Part shown: in pieces, positions 25,367-39,283 of the stretch
How the letters are laid out: each line of letters begins with the position of its first letter
Position numbering within the stretch: the first letter of the stretch is position 1
Origin: an uncultured Clostridiaceae bacterium
GTDB taxonomy: Bacteria; Bacillota; Clostridia; TANB77; CAG-465
Length of the DNA: 40,000 nucleotides
Direction: 5' to 3'
Assembly (NCBI GenBank): GCA_964593045.1
Contig: CAZQJQ010000006.1
Location: forward strand, 4,255-44,254
Made by a program: the position numbers and the translations under genes
Notes under the pieces: generated by a model
The model's input: the letters and a program-made list of their open reading frames with translations, nothing else
The model's database searches: none
Told to the model about the DNA's origin: nothing

Positions 25367-25377
25367 CCCATAAAATA

Positions 25378-25412
25378 AGGGTTTGTGAGATTTTGAAAAG
25401 TTCAAAAAAGTG
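25378..25412 (+). repeat. Copy 1 of the island border repeat (att-like), in the secA 3' flank
   Basis: AAGGGTTTGTGAGATTTTGAAAAGTTCAAAAAAGTG aligns with the copies at 28575 and 33780 (shared GTTYG..A..TTTTGAWA...GTTCA/GCAA). Confidence 0.5.
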
Positions 25413-25428
25413 CTGAAAATAGCAAAAT

Positions 25429-25523
25429 GTTTGCAATTTGTTTGCAAACAAAAAAATTTGAAAACAAAATCGTCGAAAAGCCTTGTAAAATAAGGAAATC
25501 TCTATGCAAACATTTTTGCAAAC
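25429..25523. repeat. Phased GTTTGC / GCAAAC hexamer array (candidate arm-type or regulator binding sites)
   Basis: GTTTGC at 25429 and 25440 (11-nt phase; the second forms the perfect palindrome GTTTGCAAAC, 25440-25449). Inverted GCAAAC at 25506 and 25518 (12-nt phase). Confidence 0.45.
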
Positions 25524-25529
25524 AATATA

Positions 25530-25556
25530 AAGTTGGCATTCGTGCCAACTTTTTCA
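25530..25556 (+). terminator. Intrinsic terminator between secA and int
   Basis: AAGTTGGCA (25530-25538), loop TTCG, TGCCAACTT (25543-25551), then TTTTC. Confidence 0.7.
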
Positions 25557-25588
25557 TTTACTCAAATGTAAATGGAGGAGAGATTATT

Positions 25589-26902
25589 ATGGCTGATGTA
25601 ACAGTTCAAAAAAGAGGAGAAGTATATCAATATAAATTTGAAATTGCTTCAATCGATGGAAAAAGAAAATTTAAAAATAAGTCAGGATTCGCAACAAAAA
25701 GCGAAGCAAAACAAGCAGGTATTATTGCATACAATGAGTATTTGAATACTGGACATAGTTTTAAACCTAAAACAATGTCATATTCTGATTATCTAGATTA
25801 CTGGATTGATACTTATTGTAATTTTAATCTTAAATATTCAACTATAATTACATATCTTAATATTATTAAACTTTATTTAAAACCAAGACTTGGTAGATAT
25901 GCACTATGGCAAATTGATTCTCAAATGCTACAAGAATTTATTAATAAGATATATATAGAGAAAAGTTTATCTAAATGGTATTTAAAAAATATAATGAAAG
26001 TAGTTAAAGGTTCATTAAGATATGCATGTTATTCAGTTAATTTTATTAATGAAAATCCAGCTGAAAAAGTACATATTCCTAGATATGAAGTAGTATGTGG
26101 AGATCCAGCACATATATTTACTCAAGAAGAAATTGAAAAGATATTAGATAGATTTAAAGATGTTCCTTATATCTATTATTCGTTTTTAACAGCATATTAC
26201 ACAGGAATGAGAGTATCAGAAGTATATGGATTAACTTGGGATAATATTGATTTTGATAAAAAAACTATAAATATTAATAAGAATATTATTAAAAAAAATA
26301 AATATGGATTACCTAAAAGATATTGCATAACTAAAGGTCATTCAGTAGAAGTATGGAGTTATGGAACTTGTAAGAATCCTCAAAGTCAAAGAACAATTAA
26401 TATAGGAGATACATTAGTTAAAGCATTAAAAGATTATAAGAAACTACAACAAGAAAATAGAGAATACTATGGAGAATCATATTTAAAACATTATGAAAAA
26501 AGAATAATGAATGAATATACAAATAGACCTGAAATTAAAATAGTAGATGCTAAAGCTGAAATAAAAGTAGATCTGCCAGAAGCTAAACTTGTATTTGTAA
26601 GAGCAAATGGAGATTTTAGAGGAACTGAATCACCTAGACATGCATTTAAAGTTATTAATTATGAATTAGGAATACCTTGTAGATTCCATGACTTTAGAGA
26701 TACACATGCAACTAGATTAATAGAACAAGGTGCTGATATAAAAGCAGTATCTAAAAGACTAGGACATTCAACAATAATGACTACTTATAATATTTATGTA
26801 AGAGTAACAAACAAAATGGAAACTGAAACGGTTAGTAAATTTGAGGATTATGCCAATACTTTAGATATACCACCAGTACAAGATATTGAATATCAAGATT
26901 AG
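25589..26902 (+). CDS. int: Tyrosine recombinase / site-specific integrase with N-terminal arm-type DNA-binding domain
   Basis: GGAGGAG SD at 25574-25580 precedes ATG 25589. VQKRGEVYQYKFEIASIDGKRKFKNKSGFATKSEA N-domain. Catalytic YTGMRVSE (R), FHDFR (HxxR), LGH, Y at +10. Confidence 0.9.
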   Translation: MADVTVQKRGEVYQYKFEIASIDGKRKFKNKSGFATKSEAKQAGIIAYNEYLNTGHSFKPKTMSYSDYLDYWIDTYCNFNLKYSTIITYLNIIKLYLKPRLGRYALWQIDSQMLQEFINKIYIEKSLSKWYLKNIMKVVKGSLRYACYSVNFINENPAEKVHIPRYEVVCGDPAHIFTQEEIEKILDRFKDVPYIYYSFLTAYYTGMRVSEVYGLTWDNIDFDKKTININKNIIKKNKYGLPKRYCITKGHSVEVWSYGTCKNPQSQRTINIGDTLVKALKDYKKLQQENREYYGESYLKHYEKRIMNEYTNRPEIKIVDAKAEIKVDLPEAKLVFVRANGDFRGTESPRHAFKVINYELGIPCRFHDFRDTHATRLIEQGADIKAVSKRLGHSTIMTTYNIYVRVTNKMETETVSKFEDYANTLDIPPVQDIEYQD

Positions 26903-26921
26903 TCATTCCCTAAATAAGGAA

Positions 26922-26949
26922 TTGACAAATTTTTAAAAAGTGATAATAT
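26922..26949 (+). promoter_or_regulatory. Strong sigma-A-type promoter for the leader/regulator transcript
   Basis: TTGACA (26922-26927), 16-nt spacer, extended -10 TGaTAATAT (TG 26941-26942, TAATAT 26944-26949). Confidence 0.6.
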
Positions 26950-26994
26950 ATATAACCAATGAAAGAGGTATTCTCTAGAAATGGAGGTACAGCT

Positions 26995-27060
26995 ATGAAA
27001 AAACAATCGAAATTAATAAATTCTTATATTGAATTATTTAGAGGTGTCGGTAGTATTTAA
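26995..27060 (+). CDS. Candidate 21-aa leader peptide (MKKQSKLINSYIELFRGVGSI)
   Basis: GGAGG at 26983-26987, 7 nt before ATG 26995. The last six codons lie inside the 5' arm of the terminator at 27042-27089. Confidence 0.45.
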   Translation: MKKQSKLINSYIELFRGVGSI

Positions 27061-27089
27061 ACACTTTAATACTATTGACACCTTTTTTT
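27042..27089 (+). terminator. Strong intrinsic terminator / attenuator in the 5' leader of the ArpU-like gene
   Basis: 16-bp stem: AGGTGTCGGTAGTATT (27042-27057) pairs with AATACTATTGACACCT (27068-27083), including two G-U pairs. 10-nt loop, then TTTTTT (27084-27089). Confidence 0.75.
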
Positions 27090-27116
27090 GTAGTATTTAG
27101 AAGTAAGGGTGGTAGA

Positions 27117-27749
27117 ATGATTAAAGTAGAAAATGGTAAGTTACAAGCTGAATTATTGGATAATAGAGGAACATTATCTGATAAAATTATTGAACAATAT
27201 GATTATATTGAATTAAAGAATGACTTCGCTGAAATAGTAGATATTTTATCAACGAATATGTTAGTTCATGCTATGTATGAAGAAGCATTAAAATATGAAA
27301 TAACTGAAGATTTGGAATTTAAAATATTTATTGATCCAAATATAAAAGATTATACTATGTGTTATGATTTAGCAACAGAATATTCATATTTATCAGCTAC
27401 TGATACATCAATAATTACATTAGATAGAAAGACTTATGATAAATCGTTAGAATTATGCATGAATCTCTTAAAAAAGGTCAAAAAATCATATGAAAAATTA
27501 AATGAAGTAGAAAAATTTATTATTAAATCGTTAGAATTCGATAATCCACCTGAAACAGATGAAGAATTAATGGATAGATTAATGACATATAAAAATGGAT
27601 ATTATTTATCAAAGAAAAGCGCATATATTAAAATGGCAATGCAGTTAAATATAAAGAATGTTAAAAAAAGAGAATCAGATGATTATTTAAAAAGAGTATT
27701 GGCAGATAAATATATAGAGGTTGTTTTTAATAATGAAAAGAGAACATAA
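27117..27749 (+). CDS. Hypothetical protein with a C-terminal ArpU / sigma-70 region-4-like HTH (putative element transcription regulator)
   Basis: LNEVEKFIIKSLEFDNPPETDEELMDRLMTYKNGYYLSKKSAYIKMAMQL follows the ArpU-type pattern (L.e.E..II....td.e....YY..KksA..K.A..L). ATG 27117 follows AAGGGTGG. The N-terminal 135 aa have no recognisable motif. Confidence 0.4.
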   Translation: MIKVENGKLQAELLDNRGTLSDKIIEQYDYIELKNDFAEIVDILSTNMLVHAMYEEALKYEITEDLEFKIFIDPNIKDYTMCYDLATEYSYLSATDTSIITLDRKTYDKSLELCMNLLKKVKKSYEKLNEVEKFIIKSLEFDNPPETDEELMDRLMTYKNGYYLSKKSAYIKMAMQLNIKNVKKRESDDYLKRVLADKYIEVVFNNEKRT

Positions 27750-27802
27750 AATATCAATAATATGTTCTTTTTCTATAAATTGAAGTTTTCAGACTTTAAA
27801 TA

Positions 27803-27817
27803 ATATTCCGAACTCTC
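27803..27817 (-). repeat. Inverted partial copy of the border repeat
   Basis: The reverse complement reads GAGAGTTCGGAATAT. This equals the 28575 copy (AGAGTTCGGAA-ACTTTTGA-TATT) with the central 8 nt missing. It overlaps the -35 position of the CPBP gene promoter (TGaTATAAT, 27834-27842). Confidence 0.5.
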
Positions 27818-27862
27818 TAATTATAAGAATCTATGATATAATGGTTAATAGGAGTTGATAGT

Positions 27863-28576
27863 ATGAATAATAAATTAAAGTATTTATTACCAATTCGTTC
27901 AATAATGTTTATACTTATATTTGTTATAGGATCATTAATTGTAAATAAGAATATAAGTGATATTAGTAATTGGTGGAGTATAGTAGCGACTATAGTTAAT
28001 CTAATAACTATTTTATTGTTAGTTTTAATAACTAAGAAAATGAATATTAGTTATTCTAAATTAATAAATTATGAAAAAGGAAAAACAAAAATTAAAAATA
28101 CAATTATTATATCCTTAGTTGTTTTGTTTGTTGGAACAATTGGAATGTATTTAGCTGGTTTTATTTGTTATGGAAAGTTTCCATATGCTGCACCTATGAT
28201 GATTGCACCAATACCACTTATACTTGCGATAATTAATTTTGTCCTTTTACCTTTAACAGTATCATTTGCAGAAGACGGATTATATTTAGGTTGTGGAGTT
28301 AATAGTTTTAAAAATAAGTATATGGCTATATTAATACCTGCATTCTTTTATGCTATTCAACATAGTTTTATACCAACACTATTTGATGGTAAATATATAA
28401 TATATAGATTCTTATCATTTTTACCATTAACAATAATTTTATGTTGGTATTATCATAAACATAAAAATCCAGTTCCTATTATGATAGGTCATGCTCTTAT
28501 AGAAGTAGCAAGTGTAGTTATGATATTAATGACTTCAATAAGCCTTGAATTATATCAAACAATGTTGAATATGTAG
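27863..28576 (+). CDS. Polytopic membrane protein, CPBP (CAAX protease/bacteriocin-processing, Abi-type) family-like
   Basis: Multiple TM helices (not counted precisely). FAEDGLYLG (variant of the EExxxR motif), FFYAIQH (FxxxH), IGHALIE (Hxxx[N/E]). AGGAG SD. Confidence 0.45.
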   Translation: MNNKLKYLLPIRSIMFILIFVIGSLIVNKNISDISNWWSIVATIVNLITILLLVLITKKMNISYSKLINYEKGKTKIKNTIIISLVVLFVGTIGMYLAGFICYGKFPYAAPMMIAPIPLILAIINFVLLPLTVSFAEDGLYLGCGVNSFKNKYMAILIPAFFYAIQHSFIPTLFDGKYIIYRFLSFLPLTIILCWYYHKHKNPVPIMIGHALIEVASVVMILMTSISLELYQTMLNM

Positions 28577-28653
28577 AGTTCGGAAACTTTTGATATTCCG
28601 TTCACAATATGGATATATTAGGAACAAATCAGAATTAAAAATTCTGGTTTTTT
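28575..28653 (+). repeat. Copy 2 of the island border repeat, including a small hairpin and a terminator
   Basis: AGAGTTCGGAAACTTTTGATATTCCGTTCACAATATGG...CAGAATTAAAAATTCTGGTTTTTT is alignable over about 85 nt with 33780-33865. It starts inside the CPBP stop codon. Confidence 0.6.
28630..28653 (+). terminator. Intrinsic terminator after the CPBP gene
   Basis: CAGAATT (28630-28636), loop AAA, AATTCTG (28640-28646), then GTTTTTT. Confidence 0.65.
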
Positions 28654-28654
28654 A

Positions 28655-28683
28655 TTGAAATAATTTAAAATTAAATGTATAAT
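28655..28683 (+). promoter_or_regulatory. Sigma-A-type promoter of the zur-znu module
   Basis: TTGAAA (28655-28660), 17-nt spacer, TATAAT (28678-28683). Confidence 0.6.
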
Positions 28684-28689
28684 TGAATA

Positions 28690-28704
28690 TGAAAATCATT
28701 TTCA
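28690..28704. promoter_or_regulatory. Perfect 7-1-7 Fur-family operator (candidate Zur box)
   Basis: TGAAAATcATTTTCA is a perfect palindrome starting 7 nt after the -10 hexamer, 20 nt upstream of the Fur-family gene start. Confidence 0.65.
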
Positions 28705-28723
28705 AATTGAAAAGGATGATTGT

Positions 28724-29125
28724 ATGGCAAGAAGTGAATCTTACAATACAAAACAAAAAGATATTATACTTAATGCTATTAAGAAACGAGAACAAGAATT
28801 TACAATTAAGGATTTATATAATGAAATAAAAGATATAACTGGTTTAACTACTATTTATAGACTGGTGGATAAACTTGTAGAAGATGGTAGATTGAGTAAG
28901 TCAATTGGCAAAGATAATACAACATACTATCAATATTTAGAAGAATGTGATGAAGATAATCACTTTTATCTTAAATGTGATAATTGTGGTAATATGGTTC
29001 ATGTTGATTGTGAATGTATAGAAGATTTGTCGAGTCATATATTTAAAAAACATAAATTTATGCCAAATAAAGAACATATAATTATTAATGGAGTTTGTGA
29101 AAAATGTATTAAGAAAGGAAAATAA
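28724..29125 (+). CDS. zur: Fur-family metalloregulator, Zur-like by context
   Basis: Winged-helix LTTIYRLVDKLVEDGRLSK. NHFYLKCDNCGNMVHVDC and VCEKC give the two CxxC pairs of the structural Zn site. Directly upstream of znuABC-type genes. Confidence 0.7.
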   Translation: MARSESYNTKQKDIILNAIKKREQEFTIKDLYNEIKDITGLTTIYRLVDKLVEDGRLSKSIGKDNTTYYQYLEECDEDNHFYLKCDNCGNMVHVDCECIEDLSSHIFKKHKFMPNKEHIIINGVCEKCIKKGK

Positions 29126-29127
29126 TT

Positions 29128-29427
29128 ATGATAAAAGCAAAAAATATAACAAAAATTATTGCTATTATTTTATTAGTATCTATGATACTTCGTTTTTGTT
29201 TTGTCATAATACACTTAAATCATGATTGTACTCATGATGATAATTGTCCTATTTGTGCATTGATTCACAAATTTAAAGATGATTTAAATGGGTTTGATCC
29301 AAACTTAGCTAAAGTAGTAATTGCTATTTTATTAATATTTCCTCCAGTAGCAACTTACTTAAGCAATAAAATTAGAGATAAAAAGAAAGATACACTTGTA
29401 GGGTTAAAGGTTGAGTTAATAAATTAA
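29128..29427 (+). CDS. Small two-TM membrane protein with a Cys/His-rich loop (HLNHDCTHDDNCPICALIH)
   Basis: ATG lies 2 nt after the zur stop, with AAAGGA SD inside zur. TM1 is roughly residues 9-29, TM2 roughly 61-78. Basic N- and C-termini suggest the Cys/His loop faces outward. Confidence 0.6.
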   Translation: MIKAKNITKIIAIILLVSMILRFCFVIIHLNHDCTHDDNCPICALIHKFKDDLNGFDPNLAKVVIAILLIFPPVATYLSNKIRDKKKDTLVGLKVELIN

Positions 29428-29429
29428 TA

Positions 29430-29464
29430 CCATCTTTAAAGCATAAACAAAATTTTAAAGATGG
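29430..29464 (+). promoter_or_regulatory. Perfect 11-bp inverted repeat whose 3' arm overlaps the znuA Shine-Dalgarno
   Basis: CCATCTTTAAA (29430-29440) pairs with TTTAAAGATGG (29454-29464), 13-nt loop. The GGAGG SD is 29463-29467. No T-run follows. Confidence 0.5.
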
Positions 29465-29473
29465 AGGAAGCAA

Positions 29474-30424
29474 ATGAAAAAAGTATTAAAAGTAATGGTT
29501 GTTGCAATTATGGTTTTTAGTATAGTTGGTTTAACTGGTTGCAACAAAAATAAAAGTAATGACAAACTAACTATTATTTCTACAAGTTTTCCAGGATATG
29601 ATTTTGCAAGAGCAATTACAAAAGATAATAATAATGTAGAAGTAAAAATGTTATTAAAACCTGGAGCAGAAATGCATGACTTTGAACCTACACCACAGGA
29701 TATTAAAGACATAAAAAATAGTGATATATTCATTTATGTTGGCGGAGATTCAGATGAGTGGATAGAAGATATATTAGATGATATTGATACAGATCAAACT
29801 AAAATCGTAAAACTAATTGATTTAGTTGATACAGTAGAAGAAGATGTAATTGAAGGTATGGAAGAACATGAAGAAGATGAAGAGGAAGAAGAAGTTGAAT
29901 ACGATGAACATGTTTGGACTAGCCCTGCTAATGCAATTACAATAACTAATAAATTAAAAGATGAAGTTGTTAAAATTGATAATGACAACAAAGAATTATA
30001 TGAAAAAAATGCAAGTAATTATGTTAGTGATTTAACTAATATTGATAGTGAAATTAAAGATATAGTTAAAAATGCAAAAAGAAAAGAAATAATTTTTGGA
30101 GATAGATTTCCACTTCGTTATTTTGTAGACGAATATGGATTATCTTATTATGCTGCTTTTCCTGGATGTTCAGAACAAACAGAAGCAAGCGCAAAAACTA
30201 TTTCATTCTTAATTAATAAAGTAAAAGAAGATAAAATACCTGTAGTATTCCACATTGAATTATCAAATGGAAAAATTGCTGATGCTATAGCAAAAGAAAC
30301 AGGTGTAAAAGTATTAGAATTTAAAACAGCTCATAATATATCACAAAAAGACTTTGATGCTGGAGTAACTTATGTTGATATTATGAAAGATAATATGAAA
30401 GTATTAAAAGAAGCTCTTAATTAA
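29474..30424 (+). CDS. znuA: Metal (zinc) ABC transporter substrate-binding lipoprotein, cluster A-I ZnuA/AdcA type
   Basis: Lipobox LTGC. MHDFEPTPQD and DEHVWTSP metal-ligand contexts. Acidic/His loop EGMEEHEEDEEEEEVEYDEH typical of Zn-specific members. Confidence 0.85.
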   Translation: MKKVLKVMVVAIMVFSIVGLTGCNKNKSNDKLTIISTSFPGYDFARAITKDNNNVEVKMLLKPGAEMHDFEPTPQDIKDIKNSDIFIYVGGDSDEWIEDILDDIDTDQTKIVKLIDLVDTVEEDVIEGMEEHEEDEEEEEVEYDEHVWTSPANAITITNKLKDEVVKIDNDNKELYEKNASNYVSDLTNIDSEIKDIVKNAKRKEIIFGDRFPLRYFVDEYGLSYYAAFPGCSEQTEASAKTISFLINKVKEDKIPVVFHIELSNGKIADAIAKETGVKVLEFKTAHNISQKDFDAGVTYVDIMKDNMKVLKEALN

Positions 30425-31104
30425 TGACTTTAATTGAACTTAAGAATCTATCTCTTGGATATGAAAATCATATTGTATTAAAAGATATAAATATGACTAT
30501 TGAAGAAAATGACTTTATATGTATAGTTGGACCAAATGGATCTGGTAAATCAACTTTAATTAAAGGAATACTTGGACTTATAAAAGCAAGCAAAGGTAAA
30601 GTAATATATCATAATTTAAAACAAAACTTTATAGGATATATGCCACAAGAAACACGAGTAGATTCTAATTTTCCAGCATCAGTTTTTGAAATTGTTTTAT
30701 CTGGAACACTAAATAGATTAGGATTAAAACCAATTTACTCAAAAAAAGAAAAACAGATAGCGTTTGATAATTTAAAAATACTTGGTATAGAAAATTTAAA
30801 AGATAAGAACTTTTGTGATTTATCAGGTGGTCAAAGACAAAAAGTATTATTAGCAAGAAGTCTTTGTGCCACTTCTAAATTACTTATATTGGATGAACCA
30901 TCTAATAATTTAGATAGCAAGTCAAAACAAGAACTATATAAAACAATAATAGATTTAAATAACAATCATAACATTACAATAATAATGATTACACATGATT
31001 TAGATCATGACAATTTAATCGGTAATAAAATACTATCATTAAGAGAAGATGAAACATTCTTTGGAACAACAGAAGAGTTTATAAAGAAGGTGCATCATGA
31101 GTAA
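30424..31104 (+). CDS. znuC: Zinc ABC transporter ATP-binding protein
   Basis: GPNGSGKST Walker A, LSGGQRQK signature, LLILDEP Walker B. Start overlaps the znuA stop. Confidence 0.85.
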   Translation: MTLIELKNLSLGYENHIVLKDINMTIEENDFICIVGPNGSGKSTLIKGILGLIKASKGKVIYHNLKQNFIGYMPQETRVDSNFPASVFEIVLSGTLNRLGLKPIYSKKEKQIAFDNLKILGIENLKDKNFCDLSGGQRQKVLLARSLCATSKLLILDEPSNNLDSKSKQELYKTIIDLNNNHNITIIMITHDLDHDNLIGNKILSLREDETFFGTTEEFIKKVHHE

Positions 31105-31918
31105 TATTATAGAAATGTTTTCATTCTCTTTTATGATGAGAGCTTTTATAGTAGGTATATTAATATCTTTATGTGCATCATTAATAGGTGTTTCACTTGT
31201 TTTAAGAAGAAACTCTATGATTGGTGATGGATTATCTCATGTTGGATTTGGAGCATTTGCAATAGCTACTATTTTAGGATTTGCACCACTTGAATTTGCA
31301 ATACCAATTGTTATTATCGTTTCGTTTTTTATATTAAAATTAAATGATAGTAGTAAAATACATGGAGATTCAGCAATCGCACTTATTTCGGCAAGTTCTC
31401 TTGCAATAGGAACATTTGCTATATCCGTAACAAAAGGTGTTAATACTGATATAAATAACTATTTATTTGGAAGTATTTTATCAATAAACGAAACAGATAT
31501 AATTGTAAGTGTAATATTATCTATTTTAGTAATTTTATTGTATGTAATCTCTTATAACAAAATATTTGCTATTACCTTTGATGAAAAGTTTGCTAAATCA
31601 ATAGGAATTAATACTAATCTTTATAATATGATTTTTGCAAGTTTATGTTCTATTGTTGTAGTTCTTGGAATGAGATTAATGGGTTCACTTTTAATATCAA
31701 GTTTAATAATATTTCCAACACTTTCATCTATGCAGATTTTAAAAAAATTTAAAAGTGTTGTAATATCAAGTATTTTTATATCTATAGTATCATTTACAAT
31801 AGGATTAATTGTTTCATATAATTATGCAACTCCGGCAGGAGCTACTATTGTAATTATTAATTTAGTAGTGTTCATTATATTTAAAATAATTTCTTATTTA
31901 AGAATAAGGAGGAAATAA
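31097..31918 (+). CDS. znuB: Zinc ABC transporter permease (ABC-3 family)
   Basis: 273 aa, polytopic, GDGLSHVGFG motif region. Overlaps znuC by 8 nt. Confidence 0.85.
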   Translation: MSNIIEMFSFSFMMRAFIVGILISLCASLIGVSLVLRRNSMIGDGLSHVGFGAFAIATILGFAPLEFAIPIVIIVSFFILKLNDSSKIHGDSAIALISASSLAIGTFAISVTKGVNTDINNYLFGSILSINETDIIVSVILSILVILLYVISYNKIFAITFDEKFAKSIGINTNLYNMIFASLCSIVVVLGMRLMGSLLISSLIIFPTLSSMQILKKFKSVVISSIFISIVSFTIGLIVSYNYATPAGATIVIINLVVFIIFKIISYLRIRRK

Positions 31919-32922
31919 TGGATATAATAAAAAACATTTCAATAATATTTATTTCAATATTTTTTGAGAGTTTACCATTTTTACTTTTAGGATCGCTAAT
32001 ATCATCAGTTATAGAAACTTATGTGTCAAATGAAACGATTGCTAAAATAATACCTAAAAATAAAATATTAGGATCTATTGTTGGTGTGTTTCTAGGATTT
32101 TTCTTACCTGCTTGTGATTGTGCAGTGATACCTATATCAAAAAGATTATTAAAGAAGAAAGTTCCTATTAATGTAGCAATATCATTTATGTTGGCTTCAC
32201 CAATTATAAACCCAGTAGTTTTGCTTTCAACATATAATGCCTTTTATAGAACTAATCCTGAAATATTTTGGTATAGACTATTATTTGGAATTATAATAGC
32301 TTTACTAATAGGAATAATAATGGGAATAATCTTTGGTAAAAAGGAAGTTATTACAAATAGTTTGATAGATGAAGACGAAGAATGCCAACATTGTCATAGG
32401 CAAGAAGAAAAGAAAGAAATAGATGAGGACTTTAAAGATTTAGTGGAAGAATTTAAAGATTCTGACTTTGAAGAAGAATGTCATTGTCATCATGAAAAGC
32501 ATACTCACCATAGTTTAAAGAATGATATCTTATCTATTTGCAGACATACTGCTTATGATTTGTTTGAAGTAGTTAAATACTTAATGTTTGGTGCTTTAAT
32601 TGCTAGTTTAGTTCAAGTATTATTACCAAGAAATGTTTTAATGATATTTAATAATAATCAAGTATTATCAATCATAGTATTAATGTTATTTGCTTATTTA
32701 ATATCATTATGTTCAACTTCAGATTCATTTGTAGGTAAATCATTATTATCAACATTTAATGAAAGTTCTATTATTGCATATTTACTTTTAGGACCAATGA
32801 TAGATATTAAAAATACGATAGTTCTTTTAGGGAATTATAAGAAAAGTTTTGTATGGACTTTAATATTCTTGATATTTGTAGTTATCTTCTTATTTAGTCT
32901 ATTGGTGGTGAAGATATTATGA
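31918..32922 (+). CDS. COG0701/UPF0718 (YcgR-like) permease with an inserted His/Cys/acidic loop
   Basis: Polytopic, with a PACDCAVIP motif. Central loop DEDEECQHCHRQEE...EEECHCHHEKHTHHS is encoded at 32368-32513. The start shares its first base with the last base of the znuB stop codon (ATG 31918-31920 vs TAA 31916-31918). Confidence 0.7.
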   Translation: MDIIKNISIIFISIFFESLPFLLLGSLISSVIETYVSNETIAKIIPKNKILGSIVGVFLGFFLPACDCAVIPISKRLLKKKVPINVAISFMLASPIINPVVLLSTYNAFYRTNPEIFWYRLLFGIIIALLIGIIMGIIFGKKEVITNSLIDEDEECQHCHRQEEKKEIDEDFKDLVEEFKDSDFEEECHCHHEKHTHHSLKNDILSICRHTAYDLFEVVKYLMFGALIASLVQVLLPRNVLMIFNNNQVLSIIVLMLFAYLISLCSTSDSFVGKSLLSTFNESSIIAYLLLGPMIDIKNTIVLLGNYKKSFVWTLIFLIFVVIFLFSLLVVKIL

Positions 32923-33779
32923 GTAAAAGATATTTAGGATTAATATGTTTACTATATTCAGGTATATTTGGATATGTTGTAATATTTGATAAACTTAAAA
33001 ACTTTTTAGCACCTCAAATGCAAATGTATATTAAGTTATCAATAATACCAATGTTGTTAATTGGACTTGTAATGTTATTTAATAATAAAGTTAATTATAA
33101 ATTTAAAATTAGTGACTTAATATTGGTATTACCACTTGTTTTATTAATATTTGCAGGAGATGGAAGATTAACATCAAGTTTTGCAAGTAGTAGAATAACA
33201 AATCTTAATACAGAAAATAGAACTAAAAGTGAGGAAAAGGTAGAAGCTAAAAAAGAGGAAGAAATTATAGAATTGCCAAAAAGTGAAGAAAAAAAAGAAG
33301 AAGTTAAAGAAGAACCAACAGAAGAAAATATTAACAATTATGATTTTTCTAATGTTGATTTTGATATTGTAGATGCAAGTTATAGTGAATTATCTAATTA
33401 TATAACATTTGCTCCTAAAGCAGATAAATTTAAAGGTCAAACAATAAGAGTTAGAGGTTTTGCTTTAAAAAAAGCATCTTATTTGCCAGATGGATACTTT
33501 GCTATAGGAAAATATGCAATAAGTTGTTGTGCAGCTGATGCAGGGTTTACTGGATTCATTGCAAAATATGACAATAACAAGATAACAACAGATAAGTGGT
33601 ATGAGGTTGAAGGTATATTAGAAAAAGGAAAAGACAAAGATGGATATAATATAATGTATATAAATGTCATAAACATTAAAGAGATAAGTTCTAAAGGAGA
33701 AGAACAATATGTATATCCATGTTATGCTTATGATGATGGTTCTTGTGAAGCTATGTCAAAGTATGATTTGGAATATTAA
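32919..33779 (+). CDS. TIGR03943 / UPF0703 (YcgQ-like) partner subunit of the two-component permease
   Basis: N-terminal TM helices, E/K-rich linker, C-terminal domain with ISCCAADAGFTGF. 4-nt overlap with the permease gene. Confidence 0.7.
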   Translation: MSKRYLGLICLLYSGIFGYVVIFDKLKNFLAPQMQMYIKLSIIPMLLIGLVMLFNNKVNYKFKISDLILVLPLVLLIFAGDGRLTSSFASSRITNLNTENRTKSEEKVEAKKEEEIIELPKSEEKKEEVKEEPTEENINNYDFSNVDFDIVDASYSELSNYITFAPKADKFKGQTIRVRGFALKKASYLPDGYFAIGKYAISCCAADAGFTGFIAKYDNNKITTDKWYEVEGILEKGKDKDGYNIMYINVINIKEISSKGEEQYVYPCYAYDDGSCEAMSKYDLEY

Positions 33780-33865
33780 AGAGTTTGTAATCTTTTGATA
33801 TTACGATTTGTTCGCAATAGGTTGCTAATGCGCAAACATGACAGACTAAAAAGTCTGTTTTTTTG
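33780..33865 (+). repeat. Copy 3 of the island border repeat, including a small hairpin and a terminator
   Basis: AGAGTTTGTAATCTTTTGATATTACGATTTGTTCGCAATAGG...GCGCAAACATG ACAGACTAAAAAGTCTGTTTTTTT starts immediately after the TAA stop at 33777-33779. Confidence 0.6.
33841..33865 (+). terminator. Intrinsic terminator after the zinc module
   Basis: ACAGACT (33841-33847), loop AAAA, AGTCTGT (33852-33858), then TTTTTTT. Confidence 0.7.
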
Positions 33866-33867
33866 TG

Positions 33868-33913
33868 TAGGAAAAATTTAGGAAAAATGAATATAGTTTT
33901 CTAGGATAAAAAT
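33868..33913 (+). repeat. Iteron-like direct repeats upstream of the HTH/Rep-like gene
   Basis: TAGGAAAAATt (33868-33878) and TAGGAAAAATg (33879-33889) are in tandem. A degenerate third copy TAGGATAAAAAT lies at 33902-33913. Confidence 0.5.
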
Positions 33914-33963
33914 AGAGAATTTTTTGACATGTTTTAAATAATCAATATTCGAGATAATGATAT

Positions 33964-33983
33964 TGAACAAAGGCCGATGTTCA
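33964..33983. promoter_or_regulatory. Palindromic operator-like site just upstream of the HTH gene RBS
   Basis: TGAACA (33964-33969), 8-nt spacer, TGTTCA (33978-33983). The AAAGGAG SD is at 33992-33998. Confidence 0.4.
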
Positions 33984-34006
33984 GTAATTTGAAAGGAGAT
34001 TAAAAC

Positions 34007-34525
34007 ATGGAAAACTATATTGTAATTTATGCAGTAGTACCAAAAGAAATTTATGAAACAAAAATGTTAACACCAGAAGAAAAATTGATTGCTGAACGTA
34101 TTATATACTTATGCAAAAAGGAAGGGTATTGTTGGATAACAAATAAAAGATTATCTGAAATGTATAGTATAACAATAGAAACAGCTTCAAGACATATTAA
34201 AAAATTAGAAAGGATAGGATTAATTAAATGTATTTATGATCATAATGACAAAAATACTAAAAGGGTTATTCAATTAGTTGATGACATATGGACTAAATGG
34301 TCAACAAGAGATAAATCAAATAATCAAGATGATCTTGATTATTCGGTTAAACATAATAATAAATATAATAATAGAAATAATTATAAATATAATAGTGATA
34401 AAAAAGATAAAGCACCAGTTCCTTGGTGGTTAGATGAAGAAATAGAACAAGATTTAGCTACACCTGAAGAACAAGCTGAAATGCAAAGAATGTTAGATGA
34501 AATAACAGGTGGTTCTAATGAATGA
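34007..34525 (+). CDS. Helix-turn-helix protein of the mobile-element Rep/DnaD-like regulator type
   Basis: LTPEEKLIAERIIYLCKKEGYCWITNKRLSEMYSITIETASRHIKKLERIGLI is a winged HTH. N/K-rich middle and acidic C-terminus. Position is first in the xis-int-mob operon. Confidence 0.5.
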   Translation: MENYIVIYAVVPKEIYETKMLTPEEKLIAERIIYLCKKEGYCWITNKRLSEMYSITIETASRHIKKLERIGLIKCIYDHNDKNTKRVIQLVDDIWTKWSTRDKSNNQDDLDYSVKHNNKYNNRNNYKYNSDKKDKAPVPWWLDEEIEQDLATPEEQAEMQRMLDEITGGSNE

Positions 34526-34748
34526 TAAGTTAGTTTATACAGTTCATGAAGTTTCATCTATATTGCACTCAAGTCCAAATTATATTTATGAATTAATTAA
34601 AAAAGGTTATTTACCAGCTATTAAATTAGGGAGTTTAAAAGTATTAAAATCTTCACTAGAAAGATTCTTGATTCAAAATGAGGGAAAAGATTTATCAAAT
34701 TTATCTGATATTAAAAAGATAGTAATTGAGGTAGAAGTAAATGAGTAA
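34509..34748 (+). CDS. xis: Excisionase-family (MerR-like HTH_17) DNA-binding protein
   Basis: YTVHEVSSILHSSPNYIYELIKKGYLPAIKLGSLKVLKSSLERFL. 79 aa. Overlaps the upstream gene by 17 nt and int by 8 nt. Confidence 0.75.
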   Translation: MVLMNDKLVYTVHEVSSILHSSPNYIYELIKKGYLPAIKLGSLKVLKSSLERFLIQNEGKDLSNLSDIKKIVIEVEVNE

Positions 34749-36021
34749 AATTAATATCAGAAAAAGAGGAAACTTCTATGAATATAGAATTGAAATAGCA
34801 AAGGTAGATAATAAAAGACAATGGTTAAGTAAATCTGGATTTAGAACTAAAGCAGAAGCTTTAGAATCTGGATCACTTGCATATACTGAATACTTAAATG
34901 CAGGTATTCCATTTAAACAATGCGATTTATCTTATTCAGATTATCTTGATTATTGGTTAGAAAATTATTGTATGAATAATCTAAAATATAATACTATTCA
35001 AACATATAAAATAATAATAAATAAGTATTTAAAAAAGAGTATAGGAAAATATAAGTTATCAACTATAACAAGTGTTGCTTTAAATTCATTTATAACTGAT
35101 TTAGTAAATGAATATAATCATTCTAAAACATATTATAAGAATATATTAAAAGTCATTAAAGGATCATTTAGAGATGCATGTAATCTATATGGATTTATAA
35201 AATATAATCCAGCACTTACATTAAGATTACCTAAAATAGAAGAAGAATTAAATAATAAAAGACATTATTATACAAATGAAGAAATAGATAAAATAATAGA
35301 TAGATTTAAGGACAATGCTACTTTTGTAGCATCGTTCTTAACATCGTGTTATACAGGTATGAGAACTGGAGAAGTATTTGCTCTTACTTGGGAAGATATA
35401 GATTTGGAAAATGGAATCATTAATGTTCAAAATAACTTATATGATAAACCTAAAGATAGTTTAGGAAGATGGTATTTAGGAACAACTAAAACTATATCAG
35501 GAACTAGACAAATATACATTGGAAATACACTAATAACAGCTTTAAAGAACTATAAAGAAAGACAAGAATATCTTAAAGAAGTATTTGGAAAAGATTATAA
35601 ATACTACCATTTAGAAATAGTTAAAAATGAAAACGGAAAATTTGTTGATAAAAGAATAGTTATTAACAAAGGAAATGAAGAAATATTAAATTTAGTATTT
35701 ACTAATGATGATGGAACATTCTCTGGAACTGATGTTCCTAAATATCCATTTAAAATAATTCATACTGAATTAGGAATAGAAAAATGTAGATTCTACGATT
35801 TAAGAGGAACATATGCAACTAAAGTATTAAATAATGGAACAAATATAAATGATGTAGCTAATTTATTAGGACATAGAAATGTTGAAACAACAGAAAACTA
35901 TTATATTACAAGTTTAGAAGATAATAGAAAGAATGCTGTAGAACAATTTGATGAAAATAATAAGTCTAATGTTATAGAAAATGCTATTAAATTTCAAATA
36001 CAAGAAGGTAAATTAGTATGA
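34741..36021 (+). CDS. int: Tyrosine recombinase / site-specific integrase, paralog of the one at 25589
   Basis: IRKRGNFYEYRIEIAKVDNKRQWLSKSGFRTKAEA arm-type N-domain, SYSDYLDYW, YTGMRTGE (R), FYDLR (Y in place of the usual H of HxxR), LGH, Y at +10. Confidence 0.9.
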   Translation: MSKINIRKRGNFYEYRIEIAKVDNKRQWLSKSGFRTKAEALESGSLAYTEYLNAGIPFKQCDLSYSDYLDYWLENYCMNNLKYNTIQTYKIIINKYLKKSIGKYKLSTITSVALNSFITDLVNEYNHSKTYYKNILKVIKGSFRDACNLYGFIKYNPALTLRLPKIEEELNNKRHYYTNEEIDKIIDRFKDNATFVASFLTSCYTGMRTGEVFALTWEDIDLENGIINVQNNLYDKPKDSLGRWYLGTTKTISGTRQIYIGNTLITALKNYKERQEYLKEVFGKDYKYYHLEIVKNENGKFVDKRIVINKGNEEILNLVFTNDDGTFSGTDVPKYPFKIIHTELGIEKCRFYDLRGTYATKVLNNGTNINDVANLLGHRNVETTENYYITSLEDNRKNAVEQFDENNKSNVIENAIKFQIQEGKLV

Positions 36022-37202
36022 ATTATGCAATATTTAGAAGTGAACCAATCTATACTTTAAATGATTTAGCACAAATTGGATCACATAATAAAAGAGAAAA
36101 AAAAGCATATCAATCTAATCCTGATATAGACTTATCTAAAACTAAAGCTAATGTAGAACTTGTTCCACTTAATATGAAGTATGTTAAAGGCTTTTATGAA
36201 ATAACCAAAGAATATAAATTAGAACATGAAGAAAGAATGAAAACAGAGAGAGAAGATAGAAAAAGAACTTTTAAACAAATGGTAGATAAATCAAAAAGTG
36301 TTGTTGCAGATGAACTAGTATTCACTGCAACACACACATTCTTTAATGATATGAGTAAAGATGAGATAAAAAATTGGGCAAATAGATGTATGGAATTTGT
36401 ACATTTTGGACTAGGTTATGAAGATAATCAAATCTTACATGCAACACTACATATGGATGAGAAAACACCTCATATACATTGTGTAGTAGTACCTCTAGTA
36501 AAGAAGCTAGATAAAAGAACAAATACAGAAAGATATACAATATCTAAAAAACAATTTATACATGATAAAGAACACTTGAGTGAGTTACAAGATGAATATT
36601 GTGATTACTTAAATATGTGTGGATTTGCTTTAGAAAGAGGAATAAAACATAGTGATAAAGAACATATCAATATGAAAGAATTTAAGAAACTTACTAAATC
36701 GTTAACAACTGAATTAGATATAAAAGATGATAAACTATCTCAATCAATAAATGAATTAGAAGATAAAATGAAAACAAATAAATCTATTATGTTTGATAAA
36801 GAATCAGTTAAGGTTAAGAAAGATACTTTTGAAAGTATGAATAAAGTTGTAGAAGAAGCAAAGAAAGTAAAAGACTTAAAACCTAAACTAGATAATGCAT
36901 ATAAAAACCTTAAAGAGATTACAAATGACTATTCTAGAATGCATAAAGAAAACATGAAACTGGAAGATCAAAATCAAAGTTTAAAAATAGAAAATGCAAA
37001 CCTTAGATATAAGTCATTTCATTTAACTAATACAATTGATACATTAAAAAATGTTATTAATAGAATGGCTAAATTTGTATATCATTTAGTAGCTGATGGA
37101 TTAATACCTAGACATAAAGAAGATGAATTTAATGATGAATTTGCAGAGTTTATAAGTGGTAAAAAGAAGAATAAGGACAAAGACGACAGTCTTGGACTTT
37201 AG
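36018..37202 (+). CDS. mob: MobV-family (Mob/Pre) relaxase
   Basis: MNYAIFRSE...GSHNKRE (HxxR motif I) and LHMDEKTPHIHCVVVPL (HxDE..PHxH motif III). C-terminal coiled-coil-like region. ATGA overlap with int. Confidence 0.85.
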   Translation: MNYAIFRSEPIYTLNDLAQIGSHNKREKKAYQSNPDIDLSKTKANVELVPLNMKYVKGFYEITKEYKLEHEERMKTEREDRKRTFKQMVDKSKSVVADELVFTATHTFFNDMSKDEIKNWANRCMEFVHFGLGYEDNQILHATLHMDEKTPHIHCVVVPLVKKLDKRTNTERYTISKKQFIHDKEHLSELQDEYCDYLNMCGFALERGIKHSDKEHINMKEFKKLTKSLTTELDIKDDKLSQSINELEDKMKTNKSIMFDKESVKVKKDTFESMNKVVEEAKKVKDLKPKLDNAYKNLKEITNDYSRMHKENMKLEDQNQSLKIENANLRYKSFHLTNTIDTLKNVINRMAKFVYHLVADGLIPRHKEDEFNDEFAEFISGKKKNKDKDDSLGL

Positions 37203-37368
37203 ACTATCTTTCTGACAAGATAGTAACACACTACGCTATTGGCAGAGCCAATAACGGTGTGAAAAAGGGAAGTTCCCTTTTTAAACCCTTTTAAGCATAA
37301 TTTTAGCAAGGCATAAAGCCAAGTAAAATTATGTTTTTATTTTCAAAATAAAATTTTGAAAATAAAAA
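37203..37368. other. Hairpin-dense non-coding region (candidate oriT / single-strand origin / element end)
   Basis: Five consecutive inverted repeats. (1) ACTATCTT/AAGATAGT, 37203-37224. (2) CACAC..TATTGGC aga GCCAATA..GTGTG, 37227-37261. (3) AAAAAGGGAA g TTCCCTTTTT, 37262-37282. (4) CATAATTTTA/TAAAATTATG, 37296-37333. (5) Perfect 16-bp TTTTTATTTTCAAAAT aaa ATTTTGAAAATAAAAA, 37334-37368. Confidence 0.5.
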
Positions 37369-37443
37369 GAAAAAAACCTATCGCCACTTTCACTCGCAAA
37401 CGAGCAAAACGTGCCACGGCTTATTTTCTTAGTTCTATTTTAT

Positions 37444-38880
37444 CTATTTTAAAACTATATCAATGTTTTTATCATAATAATCTGTATATGTACCACTTTT
37501 AATAGCATTTATTGCCTCTTTAAATGAATTACCATCAATATAATAAATATTTTCTAAATGCGGTGCTATATATATAGCAGAATCTTTAGATCTGTCAGCA
37601 TTGGAACTTTCAGTAAAATTGAAAGCCAACATATAATCATTGTAATTATATACCAAATAGTAATCAGCTATTTCTTTATTTGTGTAAACTTCAGAATGAA
37701 TATAAATTTCATTAGGATTTCCTAATTTTTCAAGAACAATATCTATATCTTCTTTAGAATTATCTTCAGGAAGACCTAATATTGTATTATACCCATAACC
37801 ACTTATTTCTATATAGAACTTATGATTTTTCATTGCGTCGGATATTGAAATATTATTACTATTATAAAAATTTGTAGTTAAATAACAATCATTACTACCA
37901 TTAGCACACCAACGTATTTCAGGTTTACTAACAACCGATGTTTCTAACCATTCATCAAAGTATTGTCCTTTTTTTTCGTAATAAGGTTTTAACTTTGAAC
38001 TTAATTTTTCATAAGTAATAGGATATGTAGTTACCTCATCACCATTAAAATCATTTATACCTTTTAACGCTTTAGATTTATCAAATTTTTTTATATCAAT
38101 ATCTTTGAAAGCAAAATAATATTCAAATCTTTCATCTATTGAGTTTTTATTATTACTTTGACCAACATTCTCCTTATCATTATCATCTACTAATTCTATT
38201 TTAAGATTTTCAAATATTTTTAATGCTCCTTTTGTGGTTTCAGACTCTAAATCGCAACCAGTTGCTGGATTGCAAGTAACTTGTATTTCAAAATAATGTG
38301 AATCATCTATATCTATAAAATATGTATATTTTTCTTCTCCCCAAGTTTTTACTGATGTTACTTTAGAAGTAGTATTGCTTATTTTTTCAACTTTTGCATT
38401 TTCTTTGGAATATTCATTTGCACCATTACTATTTCCATATTTAGTAGCAATATCGTGAATATTAGTAAAATCCGTTTCTTTTTTTTCTATATCTGTATTT
38501 ATATAACCTGAATTTTCAACGTTATGTCCTAAATCAGTTGTTTCAAGCACATAATTTTTTTCATTGCCTAAATTATAAAAAGCAAACCCAAAATAATTAT
38601 AATCTTTATCTACATTCTGATATGCAACTAGGTAATCAGTCATTTTATATATTTTCATATTAACTTCATTACCGTTTTCTTCATATAAATTATATTTATG
38701 TATATCACCATCAACTAAGGTTAAACTATCAGAATATAATTTAACTATACCTTTATTTCCAAATAAATCGCCACCATTTCCTTTTAAAGCAAAAGTTATA
38801 GCTATTGTAGCAATAACAATTGTTGCACCTGCAATACCAGCAATTAAACTTATATTTGCCCATTTTGAATGTCCACTCAT
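37444..38880 (-). CDS. N-terminally membrane-anchored extracytoplasmic protein of unknown function (478 aa)
   Basis: AGGAGG SD. TM anchor ISLIAGIAGATIVIATIAITFAL. N/Y/D/K-rich ectodomain with Cys pairs CNPATGC and WCANGSNDC. No motif I recognise. Confidence 0.6.
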   Translation of the reverse strand: MSGHSKWANISLIAGIAGATIVIATIAITFALKGNGGDLFGNKGIVKLYSDSLTLVDGDIHKYNLYEENGNEVNMKIYKMTDYLVAYQNVDKDYNYFGFAFYNLGNEKNYVLETTDLGHNVENSGYINTDIEKKETDFTNIHDIATKYGNSNGANEYSKENAKVEKISNTTSKVTSVKTWGEEKYTYFIDIDDSHYFEIQVTCNPATGCDLESETTKGALKIFENLKIELVDDNDKENVGQSNNKNSIDERFEYYFAFKDIDIKKFDKSKALKGINDFNGDEVTTYPITYEKLSSKLKPYYEKKGQYFDEWLETSVVSKPEIRWCANGSNDCYLTTNFYNSNNISISDAMKNHKFYIEISGYGYNTILGLPEDNSKEDIDIVLEKLGNPNEIYIHSEVYTNKEIADYYLVYNYNDYMLAFNFTESSNADRSKDSAIYIAPHLENIYYIDGNSFKEAINAIKSGTYTDYYDKNIDIVLK

Positions 38881-38904
38881 AAATTTTCCTCCTTTTTTGT
38901 ATAT

Positions 38905-38933
38905 ATTATACTACATAAAAGTGTATTTTTCAA
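38905..38933 (-). promoter_or_regulatory. Sigma-A-type promoter of the 478-aa gene
   Basis: On the minus strand: TTGAAA (plus-strand 38928-38933), 17-nt spacer, TATAAT (38905-38910). Confidence 0.55.
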
Positions 38934-39031
38934 ATTAAAATTTATATAACACTTTATACATATTGTAGTTTATCATAACTTTTTTTAAATAGTTTTGTGT
39001 TTCTTTGAATGGTAAAGTTATATTGTAACTA

Positions 39032-39250
39032 TCAAGTTTTGAACCTATTATTAGGTTTCTTCTTTGATAGCTTGCTTAAACTTTGGTTATTAACATTATC
39101 ACTTTCAAGGGTATTATTCATAGGTTGTGGTTGTGGGTTAATTGATTGTTGATTAACTCCCATATTTTGATTGAAACTTTGATTATTTAATGGTTGATTA
39201 TCAGGTATTTCATTATTATTTTGATTTGAATTATTTAGATCTTGATTCAT
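39032..39250 (-). CDS. Possible small Q/N/P-rich low-complexity protein (72 aa); may be non-coding
   Basis: An ORF fills an otherwise empty 400-nt gap between two minus-strand genes. Weak AAAGGA SD 10 nt upstream. The composition is extreme (N, Q, P), so a chance ORF cannot be excluded. Confidence 0.3.
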   Translation of the reverse strand: MNQDLNNSNQNNNEIPDNQPLNNQSFNQNMGVNQQSINPQPQPMNNTLESDNVNNQSLSKLSKKKPNNRFKT

Positions 39251-39283
39251 TTTTTTTATTTCCTTTCTAGTAAAAATTTATTC

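Follow-up and report, generated by a model that had tools for sequence, protein, structure and literature searches.

A probable composite integrative mobilizable island with two integrases and palindrome-ended cassettes at the 3' end of secA in an uncultured low-GC gut bacterium

What has been built into the DNA behind secA, and in how many steps, is the question raised by this locus of an uncultured low-GC gut bacterium. Within the 40,000-nucleotide (nt) stretch of DNA analyzed (the window), the genes 5' of secA are of housekeeping type, including those for PolC, tyrosyl-tRNA synthetase, U32 peptidase and RuvX, among others. The stretch of interest (25367-37443) lies 3' of secA (22511-25366, + strand). 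In these 12 kb every gene is on the + strand, and three convergent hypothetical genes come after the last of them, the gene for a MobV relaxase. An earlier note on this DNA had proposed that two or three related elements integrated successively at one attachment (att) site. On balance we favor, with moderate confidence, a different reading, namely that a single composite integrative mobilizable island occupies the 3' end of secA and that the region covers its left and central part. The boundaries of this island, the linkage of its genes, its repeat structure and its horizontal spread are documented below by comparison with related loci, designated by L-numbers (comparator loci or contigs from relatives).

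SecA was scanned in one genome per species, yielding 80 loci, all from uncultured metagenome-assembled genomes (MAGs) labeled Clostridia or Bacilli, with SecA proteins 57-74% identical to that of the window at the amino acid (aa) level (the closest, 74%). In 13 of the 71 species-level loci with enough flanking sequence, an integrase of the same family as the one next to secA in the window begins 170-700 nt after secA, in the same orientation. By this recurrence, the secA 3' end is a genuine and repeatedly used docking site of this integrase family. Fragments of the secA 3' end (secA') are also found at the ends of units in the relatives L009, L014, L044, L066, L085, L090, L094, L097, L099, L100, L102, L105, L109 and L111. 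These fragments were detected by a peptide search for the SecA C-terminal motif ..GSGKKYK.C.GK followed by the stop codon, which first found them downstream of secA in L009, L014, L044 and L066, and in L085, and later in most arrays. A search for exact direct repeats of at least 12 nt between the secA-stop region and the downstream sequence gave none in the window and only short, likely chance matches in most loci; it did pick up part of the L009 fragment.

When aligned with genuine secA ends (alignment A1), the fragments start to match about 47 nt before the stop codon, corresponding to window position ~25320. The last ~47 nt of secA (25320-25366, +) are taken as the core of the left attachment repeat, attL. 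In L044, from a species with a SecA only 58% identical, a first element and a secA' fragment precede a 431-nt stretch that matches window 25325-25755 at 95.4% identity, and in L091-L093 the nucleotide identity jumps from 67-70% to 87% at window position 25278. From this match and this jump, we infer that the island supplies the secA end itself and starts inside secA at ~25320. As judged from these alignments, the zinc-binding CGSGKKYKNCCGK tail of SecA, encoded by its last ~15 codons, comes from the island. The earlier note had placed the start of the island at the secA stop codon; the gene does end at 25366, but the island starts ~47 nt inside it.

The gene next to secA, int1 (25589-26902, +), encodes a tyrosine integrase with an arm-binding N-terminal domain (Pfam PF00589, PF14659 and PF14657) and has 1221 homologues at E<=1e-60; a homologue of 93% identity stands directly after secA in L091-L093. 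We take int1 to be the enzyme for docking at secA. Between secA and int1 (25427-25525, +), TGTTTGCA occurs twice in direct and TGCAAACA three times in inverted orientation. These are putative arm-type integrase-binding repeats, and in many loci the secA-integrase spacer typically carries paired repeats of 8-11 nt. Compared with its closest homologue, P0121, int1 is ~99.5% identical after residue 63 and only ~52% identical over residues 4-63 (arm-binding N-terminal domain), and the repeats co-vary with this domain, being TGTTTGCA beside int1 and TTGTCCAC beside P0121. In L100 and L102, the far secA' copy is immediately preceded by repeats of the type found on the int1 side (TGTGCACA in L100 and TGTTCGCA in L102). 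Repeats at both ends of a unit would be the pattern expected of arm-type sites for an integrase acting on the whole unit.

Two side observations concern int1 and an int1-like gene. The arm-binding domain of int1 (first ~63 residues) appears to have been swapped together with the arm repeats as one block (window 25589-25780 against P0121), and a truncated int1 copy in L044 (13229-13392) breaks off near the same codon, ~55, which points to the domain boundary as a hot spot of recombination; such a swap of a domain together with its sites is a natural experiment on change of integrase arm-specificity. In L017, the 670-nt gap after an int1-like gene contains a GC-richer, structured-looking non-coding stretch (14400-14580).

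At the other end of the region lies a core for mobilization and excision (M3; 33858-37427, +; 3.57 kb), which has shared limits in contigs with differing flanks. Its left limit is 33855-33860 in seven contigs, 90-96% identical (L090, L094, L096-L099 and L105), and its right limit is 37426-37431 in nine contigs, of which five, 90-91% identical, run to 37426-37427 and the four others (76-83% identical, or with the right part only) end at 37427-37431. The core encodes a helix-turn-helix (HTH) protein of the HTH_36 family (34007-34525, +), identified by profile matches and resembling the N-terminus of replication initiators; Xis (34509-34748, +), an HTH_17 excisionase (PF12728) that scores 26.1 bits against the TIGR01764 'excise' model, slightly below the cut-off of 28.8 bits; int2 (34741-36021, +), a second tyrosine integrase (PF00589 plus a SAM-like N-domain); and the MobV relaxase (36018-37202, +), with 117.8 bits against NCBIfam MobV NF041497 (cut-off 100) and 99 bits against PF01076 Mob_Pre (cut-off 25.5). 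Both int1 and int2 are intact and match Phage_integrase and an N-terminal SAM-like domain, and the catalytic R, (H or Y)xxR, H and Y positions are legible in their alignment. In agreement with the earlier note, the two are paralogues in the same orientation (42% identity over 421 aa), and profile searches concur that the excisionase, the Rep-like HTH protein and MobV accompany only the right-hand integrase. Among the open reading frames (ORFs) scanned over 25367-40000, none matched conjugation families (type IV secretion system or coupling protein). Directly after MobV, a hairpin CTATCTT..AAGATAG followed by a long hairpin CACAC..GTGTG ending in GTGTG (37204-37261, +; read from the sequence) is a candidate origin of transfer (oriT), presumably akin to MobV nick regions. 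A metagenome scan with MobV gave 18 loci.

Are the two integrases, then, the remains of two integrations? Between int1 and the core lies hyp224 (27117-27749, +), the conserved partner of int1, which has no known domain and no match in Pfam, NCBIfam or PHROG. An int1 homologue stands before it in L090, L091, L100, L102 and L104; in L101 and L103, whose contigs do not include int1, it is followed by the core. L100 and L102 share one arrangement over 9.9-11.6 kb, namely secA end, int1-like gene, hyp224-like gene, HTH, Xis, int2-like gene, MobV, cargo and secA' copy, with int2 proteins 67-69% identical to that of the window. L104 shows the same order up to MobV, its contig ending before any far-end copy, and L101 and L103 have the same junction between hyp224 and the HTH gene of the core. 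In L090, int1-hyp224 is 89% and the core 95.7% identical to the window, a DUF285 gene takes the place of the cargo found in the window, and the unit is preceded by the end of another element and a secA' fragment. Because int1, hyp224 and the core are linked within single units bounded by secA repeats (L100 and L102), the two integrases would belong to a conserved backbone rather than to two successive integrations at this site. As far as gene order tells, int1, hyp224 and the core look like a backbone with two cargo slots, one between hyp224 and the core and the other to the right of the core.

In the window, the left slot is occupied by two passenger cassettes. Cassette 1 (27863-28576, +) carries a gene for a CPBP/Rce1-like intramembrane protease (PF02517), which is absent from the same slot in L090, where the DUF285 gene lies. 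Cassette 2 (28645-33812, +), defined by Pfam and NCBIfam matches and by homology to L081-L085, is a zinc-uptake operon composed of zur (Fur-family regulator; 28724-29125), a gene for a small membrane protein (29128-29427), znuA (29474-30424), znuC (30424-31104), znuB (31097-31918), a gene for an ArsP_1 permease (31918-32922) and a TIGR03943 gene (32919-33779), all on the + strand. The labels CPBP and TIGR03943 had been given in the earlier note, and Pfam and NCBIfam agree with them as they do for the Fur-family regulator, ZnuA, ZnuB, ZnuC and the permease. A promoter scan places the zur operon promoter at 28655-28683 (+; 11 of 12 positions sigma-70-like). Just downstream of this best promoter match is a Fur-type box, TGAAAATCATTTTCA (28690-28704, +), whose 7-1-7 inverted repeat is perfect and is conserved in L081, L085 and L087; the box, which is not the border palindrome described below, probably serves the operon itself as its Fur-family operator.

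The operon is found in other surroundings as a block. An initial search of metagenomes with TIGR03943 gave no match. L081-L085 match window 28645-33812, and precisely this interval, at 89.6-91.4% identity, while the neighbors differ. In L081, the operon lies between genes for pyruvate phosphate dikinase (PPDK) and an HTH protein on one side and a large-serine-recombinase element on the other. In L085, arm-like repeats, a secA' fragment and an int1-like gene come after it, and for that reason we read the operon as the last cargo, at the right end, of another secA array. L087 carries a cut-down operon among other palindrome-ended blocks: at 960-1250 only 39 codons of zur remain and znuA, znuC and znuB are lost, and the promoter, the operator and both border palindromes are kept. 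This is a decayed version of the zinc cassette. Adjacency of secA and zur was seen in none of the 80 related genomes. By these comparisons the zur operon is passenger cargo in a variable slot between backbone modules. The idea of the earlier note that the left part, without xis and mob, is a passenger thus stands in modified form: genes in it are passengers, but as discrete cassettes (the CPBP gene and the zur operon) in a cargo slot, not as a 'left part'.

Some features next to the operon in relatives were recorded in passing. The large serine recombinase of L081 (10980-13430; also in L082-L084; 532 aa, Resolvase and Recombinase domains) starts ~120 nt after the zur operon, and its element, a second kind of mobile element at the same spot, also encodes ParB_N and WYL proteins. 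In L085 (1-1263), the protein upstream of the operon consists largely of ~8 tandem repeats of ~28 residues (..LEEIQKIIQSPEFKEHPELFTS.TLA.A.) and has no homologue in the window. The island replaces the metal-binding C-terminal tail of SecA (last 15 codons) and also carries a zinc-uptake operon, which may be a coincidence.

The cassette borders are marked by a second kind of site. Its ideal form is an imperfect 26-nt palindrome, GATCGTAATAT-TAAG-ATATTACGAAC; its first base lies 0-10 nt past a stop codon, and an intrinsic terminator usually comes after it. A weight matrix was built solely from 24 copies in other loci, and 30 simulated windows, with a maximum of 16.3 bits, served as the null. The two best sites in the 40 kb are copy 2 (GTTCGGAAACTTTTGATATTCCGTTC; 28578-28603, +; 23.7 bits) and copy 3 (GTTTGTAATCTTTTGATATTACGATT; 33783-33808, +; 18.3 bits), which flank the zur operon and begin 1-3 nt past a stop codon. 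They are each other's best match in the window (local-alignment score 34, against a background of 27-29) and share the central 11 nt CTTTTGATATT; the two sites flanking a different cargo block in L100 likewise share a central CTTTTGATATT. Copy 3 is kept after TIGR03943 in L081 and L087, and its closest copy is at L100 11156.

The earlier note had listed three copies of one family at the module borders, just after stop codons. Copies 2 and 3 bear this out, but copy 1 (25378-25405, +) scores -4.8 bits and does not stand out against the other two in the local-alignment scan. It is instead the descending half of a secA-terminator-like hairpin in the secA-proximal arm; the stretch is 95% identical in L044 within the island arm, and a similar AAGGGTTTG(C/T)GAG comes after other secA' ends. 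Nor are these motifs the repeat left by integration, as had been supposed: that repeat is the ~47-nt secA coding end, which has no internal copy here. Partial and degenerate sites also occur. A right-arm half copy, AAATAATATTCCGAAC (27798-27813, +; read from the sequence), follows hyp224; the same string ends a full copy after the hyp224 homologue in L090 and is an inverted match to 28575-28585. A possible degenerate copy (28600-28625, +) overlaps copy 2 by 4 nt, and its score, 12.0 bits, is one that the simulated windows also reach. The matrix scan found no copy adjoining the right side of the core in the window. In other loci, right-arm half copies (AGTAATATTCCGAAC, L094 3170-3195; AGTAATATTCCGTTC, L105 1215-1235) lie directly after terminator T-tracts, some junctions being one and a half sites.

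Several lines of evidence bear on what the palindrome does. It has no match in the 1.40 Mb of the 80 other secA loci, nor in L086, in L112-L114 or in the 25 kb of the window upstream of secA. The dispersed genome-wide repeat that the earlier note had named as its refutation was not seen, since only island copies occur in the 40 kb and none in the 1.40 Mb of related secA loci. In array loci, 49 of 395 ends of homology blocks fall between -10 and +36 nt from a palindrome copy, against an expectation of 0.6%, an enrichment of ~20-fold. Pairs of loci share sequence up to, or from, a palindrome and differ on its other side. In one such case, L105 site 1153 consists of the left arm and flank of L094 site 2427 joined to the right arm and flank of L094 site 3114, and the 170-aa gene cassette between the two L094 sites is present in L094 only. 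On the pattern of these breakpoints, the palindromes are most likely sites of cassette exchange. Because their central 11 nt are identical, copies 2 and 3 would form a compatible pair able to loop out the zinc operon, with a predicted circle junction GTTTGTAATCTTTTGATATTCCGTTC and a matching deletion GTTCGGAAACTTTTGATATTACGATT.

That the palindrome is no recombination site but a 3'-untranslated-region hairpin or a protein operator (for example Zur-like) traveling with the cassettes is possible, though we doubt it. The motif always lies between stop codon and terminator on the coding strand, and its arms pair in most copies (205 of 286 cells are Watson-Crick). The arms are equal to the half-sites of the Bacillus-type Zur box, TCGTAAT/ATTACGA, and they flank a zur operon. 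The Bacillus Zur consensus, however, is a 7-1-7 inverted repeat TCGTAAT-N-ATTACGA in a promoter; in the palindrome the half-sites are 8 nt apart instead of 1, a separate 7-1-7 box overlaps the zur promoter, and the palindrome also ends cassettes unconnected with zinc. With this spacing, and positions after stop codons and upstream of terminators, the Zur box was set aside as its identity; a chromosome-dimer (dif/Xer) site was set aside as well, the arms being apparently unlike those of dif. Also against a hairpin or operator are the enrichment of breakpoints at the palindrome, the cassette indel that joins within its center, and the arm variants CGTAA..TTACG and CGGAA..TTCCG, which are found paired with their own kind and also in hybrid combinations, the outcome expected of crossovers between site types. 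Successive integration of two or three elements at one att site, with copies left at 25378, 28575 and 33780 and the left part as a cis-mobilizable passenger of the right-hand integrative mobilizable element (IME), is in our judgment unlikely. Relatives do show stacking at secA, additional secA 3'-end fragments lying between units in L044, L066, L090, L099, L109 and L111, and to this extent accretion holds. The two integrases are paralogues, many int1-type units lack the Xis/int2/MobV core, and the sequence just after copy 3 (TTGTTCGCAA, GCGCAAACA) resembles int1-type arm repeats and could be the leftover far arm of a left-hand element. Integration at secA leaves the 47-nt coding end, however, and no internal copy of it was found in the window between int1-CPBP, the zur operon and the core. 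Copy 1 is outside the family of copies 2 and 3, which flank the zur operon also where no integrase is near (the left side of L081; L087), and the linkage of int1, hyp224 and core is kept in single repeat-bounded units of lineages whose int2 proteins are only 67-98% identical. Least probable, and in our view very unlikely, is that the zur operon is native chromosome flanked by two unrelated insertions, one, an int1 element, at secA and the other, a small IME, at the 3' end of the operon. In L081-L084 the operon is beside PPDK and a serine-recombinase element comes shortly after its 3' palindrome, a hint of a favored insertion site, and GC content is flat across the region. Against this, no secA' repeat closes an int1 element before zur, the core is found in secA arrays without exception, coming in L090 after int1-hyp224 with different cargo and without zur, secA and zur are apart in all 80 related genomes, and the L085 operon is the final cargo in an array at secA.

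The single-island reading has its own difficulties. Neither a second copy of the secA 3' end nor far-arm TGTTTGCA repeats were found in the window up to 40000, so the island either has decayed or is not wholly contained in the window, and no empty site turned up for this lineage. Nor does this reading account for a second intact integrase. The empty slot between hyp224 and the core in L100 is free of palindromes, and the L096 core has none on its left; the palindrome is therefore tied to cassettes and not demonstrably to int2. Breakpoints lie at either edge of the palindrome as well as at its center, and the likeness of its arms to Zur half-sites counts here too. All comparator loci are metagenome or MAG contigs, in which chimerism at repeats is possible.

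For the composite island, we propose the following order of events, in which the assignment of each integrase to its site, like present-day mobility, is put conditionally. Int1, as a lambda-type tyrosine integrase, would recombine the ~47-nt secA-end sequence borne by the island with chromosomal secA. Because the island carries a sequence identical to the secA 3' coding end, secA would stay intact, and the displaced original end would come to lie at the far side of the island, as in complete copies. The core would provide the excisionase, the second paralogous integrase, the Rep-like DNA-binding protein, and MobV with its candidate oriT, and the excised circle would borrow the conjugation pore of another element. 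Variable cassettes, each usually with its own promoter and ending in a stop codon, the 26-nt imperfect palindrome and a terminator, would enter the two slots, from int1-hyp224 to the core and to the right of the core; in this island the left slot would have received the CPBP protease gene and the complete zinc-uptake operon. The palindromes would most likely serve for cassette exchange, copies 2 and 3 looping out the zinc operon. More tentatively, the 26-nt palindrome could be a dedicated recombination site and the island an integron-like platform for gene capture in a Gram-positive lineage, in which int1 with its arm sites docks the island in secA, int2 and Xis insert, excise and shuffle promoter-bearing cassettes at the palindromes, the entire zinc operon being one of them, and MobV spreads the platform between species.

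Like an integron (IntI/attC), the island has co-oriented cassettes, each with an imperfect palindrome just past its stop codon, where cassettes come and go. The integrases themselves are not integron integrases (int1, 61 bits, and int2, 54 bits, against a cut-off of 265 for TIGR02249), the site is 26 nt long against 57-141 nt for attC, and the cassettes have their own promoter and terminator whereas integron cassettes are mostly promoterless; in relatives, TATAAT-like elements precede cassette starts. The platform also differs in being a mobilizable island of a low-GC Gram-positive lineage. In staphylococci, islands of the staphylococcal cassette chromosome (SCC) type sit at the 3' end of rlmH (orfX); their recombinases are of the serine (Ccr) kind, and a relaxase is lacking. 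Composite SCC islands resemble the secA arrays in that units are stacked at a housekeeping gene's 3' end, each bounded by a repeat holding that end; in contrast, the secA island has tyrosine integrases and MobV.

The closest general type is the tyrosine-integrase/MobV IME of Firmicutes, for example IMESag-rpsI of Streptococcus agalactiae (PMC5704250). The island shares with such IMEs the small size, the integrase, excisionase and MobV without mating-pore genes, integration at the 3' end of a housekeeping gene with restoration of that end, and tandem arrays. As in an IME, an integration/excision module is present together with a relaxase, oriT being represented by the candidate hairpin only. 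Of the attachment repeats, attL is located by comparison and no second copy occurs up to 40000; complete relatives have both attL and attR. Horizontal spread is indicated indirectly by the 95%-identical segment in a species with a SecA 58% identical as well as by the core contigs with differing flanks. The differences are the target, secA, the two paralogous integrases per repeat-bounded unit and the palindrome-ended passenger cassettes. There is no mention of secA as an integration target in an IME review (PMC5704250) or in the literature searched, which is a weak negative. Accretion and cis-mobilization are known for arrays built from integrative and conjugative elements (ICEs), IMEs and cis-mobilizable elements (CIMEs), such as ICESt1/ICESt3 of Streptococcus thermophilus (cited in PMC5704250). 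Like these arrays, L044, L066, L090 and L099 have head-to-tail units separated by att copies, with passenger DNA without its own recombinase; the window differs in having no internal secA repeat and in passengers bordered by a different, 26-nt site. The family is widespread and apparently undescribed in uncultured low-GC gut bacteria, its unusual features being the conserved two-integrase backbone and the palindrome-ended, promoter-bearing cassettes.

The secA gene is essential and universally conserved, and the combination of secA 3' end, integrase and downstream secA-end fragment offers a simple marker by which islands can be found and delimited in metagenomes. A complete metal-homeostasis operon is seen here moving as a passenger. 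If the palindromes are indeed recombination sites, cassette capture of the integron type would occur on mobilizable islands of low-GC Gram-positive bacteria through an ordinary phage-type integrase.

How far the island extends to the right depends on the DNA beyond the core. The core end, 37427, lies 16 nt from the stop codon of hyp478 (37444-38880, -), a convergent hypothetical gene without domains that may be island cargo or host DNA. Its closest homologue, in L112, is 90.7% identical at the nucleotide level in a different context, and the homology stops exactly at the stop codon, 37444; a search for an empty site through this homologue found none, only the gene body being conserved. Exact look-ups of the proteins int1, int2, TIGR03943, hyp478 and P0001 returned no record. 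In L112 (1-21536), the homologue lies in a run of more than 20 kb of co-oriented small hypothetical genes with divergent Xre-type regulators. In relatives showing both, the far secA' copy is ~1.5-6 kb to the right of the core and only 2.6 kb are left in the window, so the right end would have been lost or lie outside the window; continuation of the island past the window is probable. The earlier note had likewise found no rightmost repeat and had suspected an extension past the window, and both points agree with the present data.

Other signs of an island were sought. Base composition does not betray it, GC content being flat at ~25% throughout the region. A tRNA gene as docking target was set aside, none being present in the window, and an Rfam search of 24000-40000 matched no RNA family. 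The gene directly upstream of secA (21888-22382, -) encodes a 164-aa protein with a DUF1980_C domain alone, a domain present also in the last gene of the zinc operon (TIGR03943), and is syntenic with secA in many relatives (34-67% identity).

Secondary structures were noted around the core. On its left (33813-33865, +; terminator scan), a hairpin CGCAATAG/CTAATGCG (33813-33832), common to L100 and resembling the L102 arm repeat TGTTCGCA, is followed by an intrinsic terminator (33840-33859 and a T-tract). Near its right end is a small hairpin, CTCG-CAAA-CGAG (37393-37404, +), with compensatory stem changes, the stem at the same place being TTAC..GTAA, TTGC..GCAA or CTCG..CGAG depending on the locus. 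The CGCAAAC strings at both core ends were considered as int2 arm sites and rejected, the left one being in the hairpin shared with L100 and the right one in the covarying hairpin; repeat searches revealed no att sites for the int2-like genes of L017 and L068. A break at the GTGTG of the oriT-like hairpin (L094/L095) was dismissed as merely the start of a variable stretch. In a core stretch unlike the other core copies, positions 37336-37366 form a perfect 14-nt inverted repeat, TTTATTTTCAAAAT-AAA-ATTTTGAAAATAAA. By comparison with the right ends of L096-L111, the core right end (37380-37427) is composed of CACTTTCA, the hairpin with its 4-bp stem and then CAAAACGTGCCACG; this unit is duplicated in tandem in L100 (7360-7470) and could serve as an origin, bind a protein or act as an RNA element.

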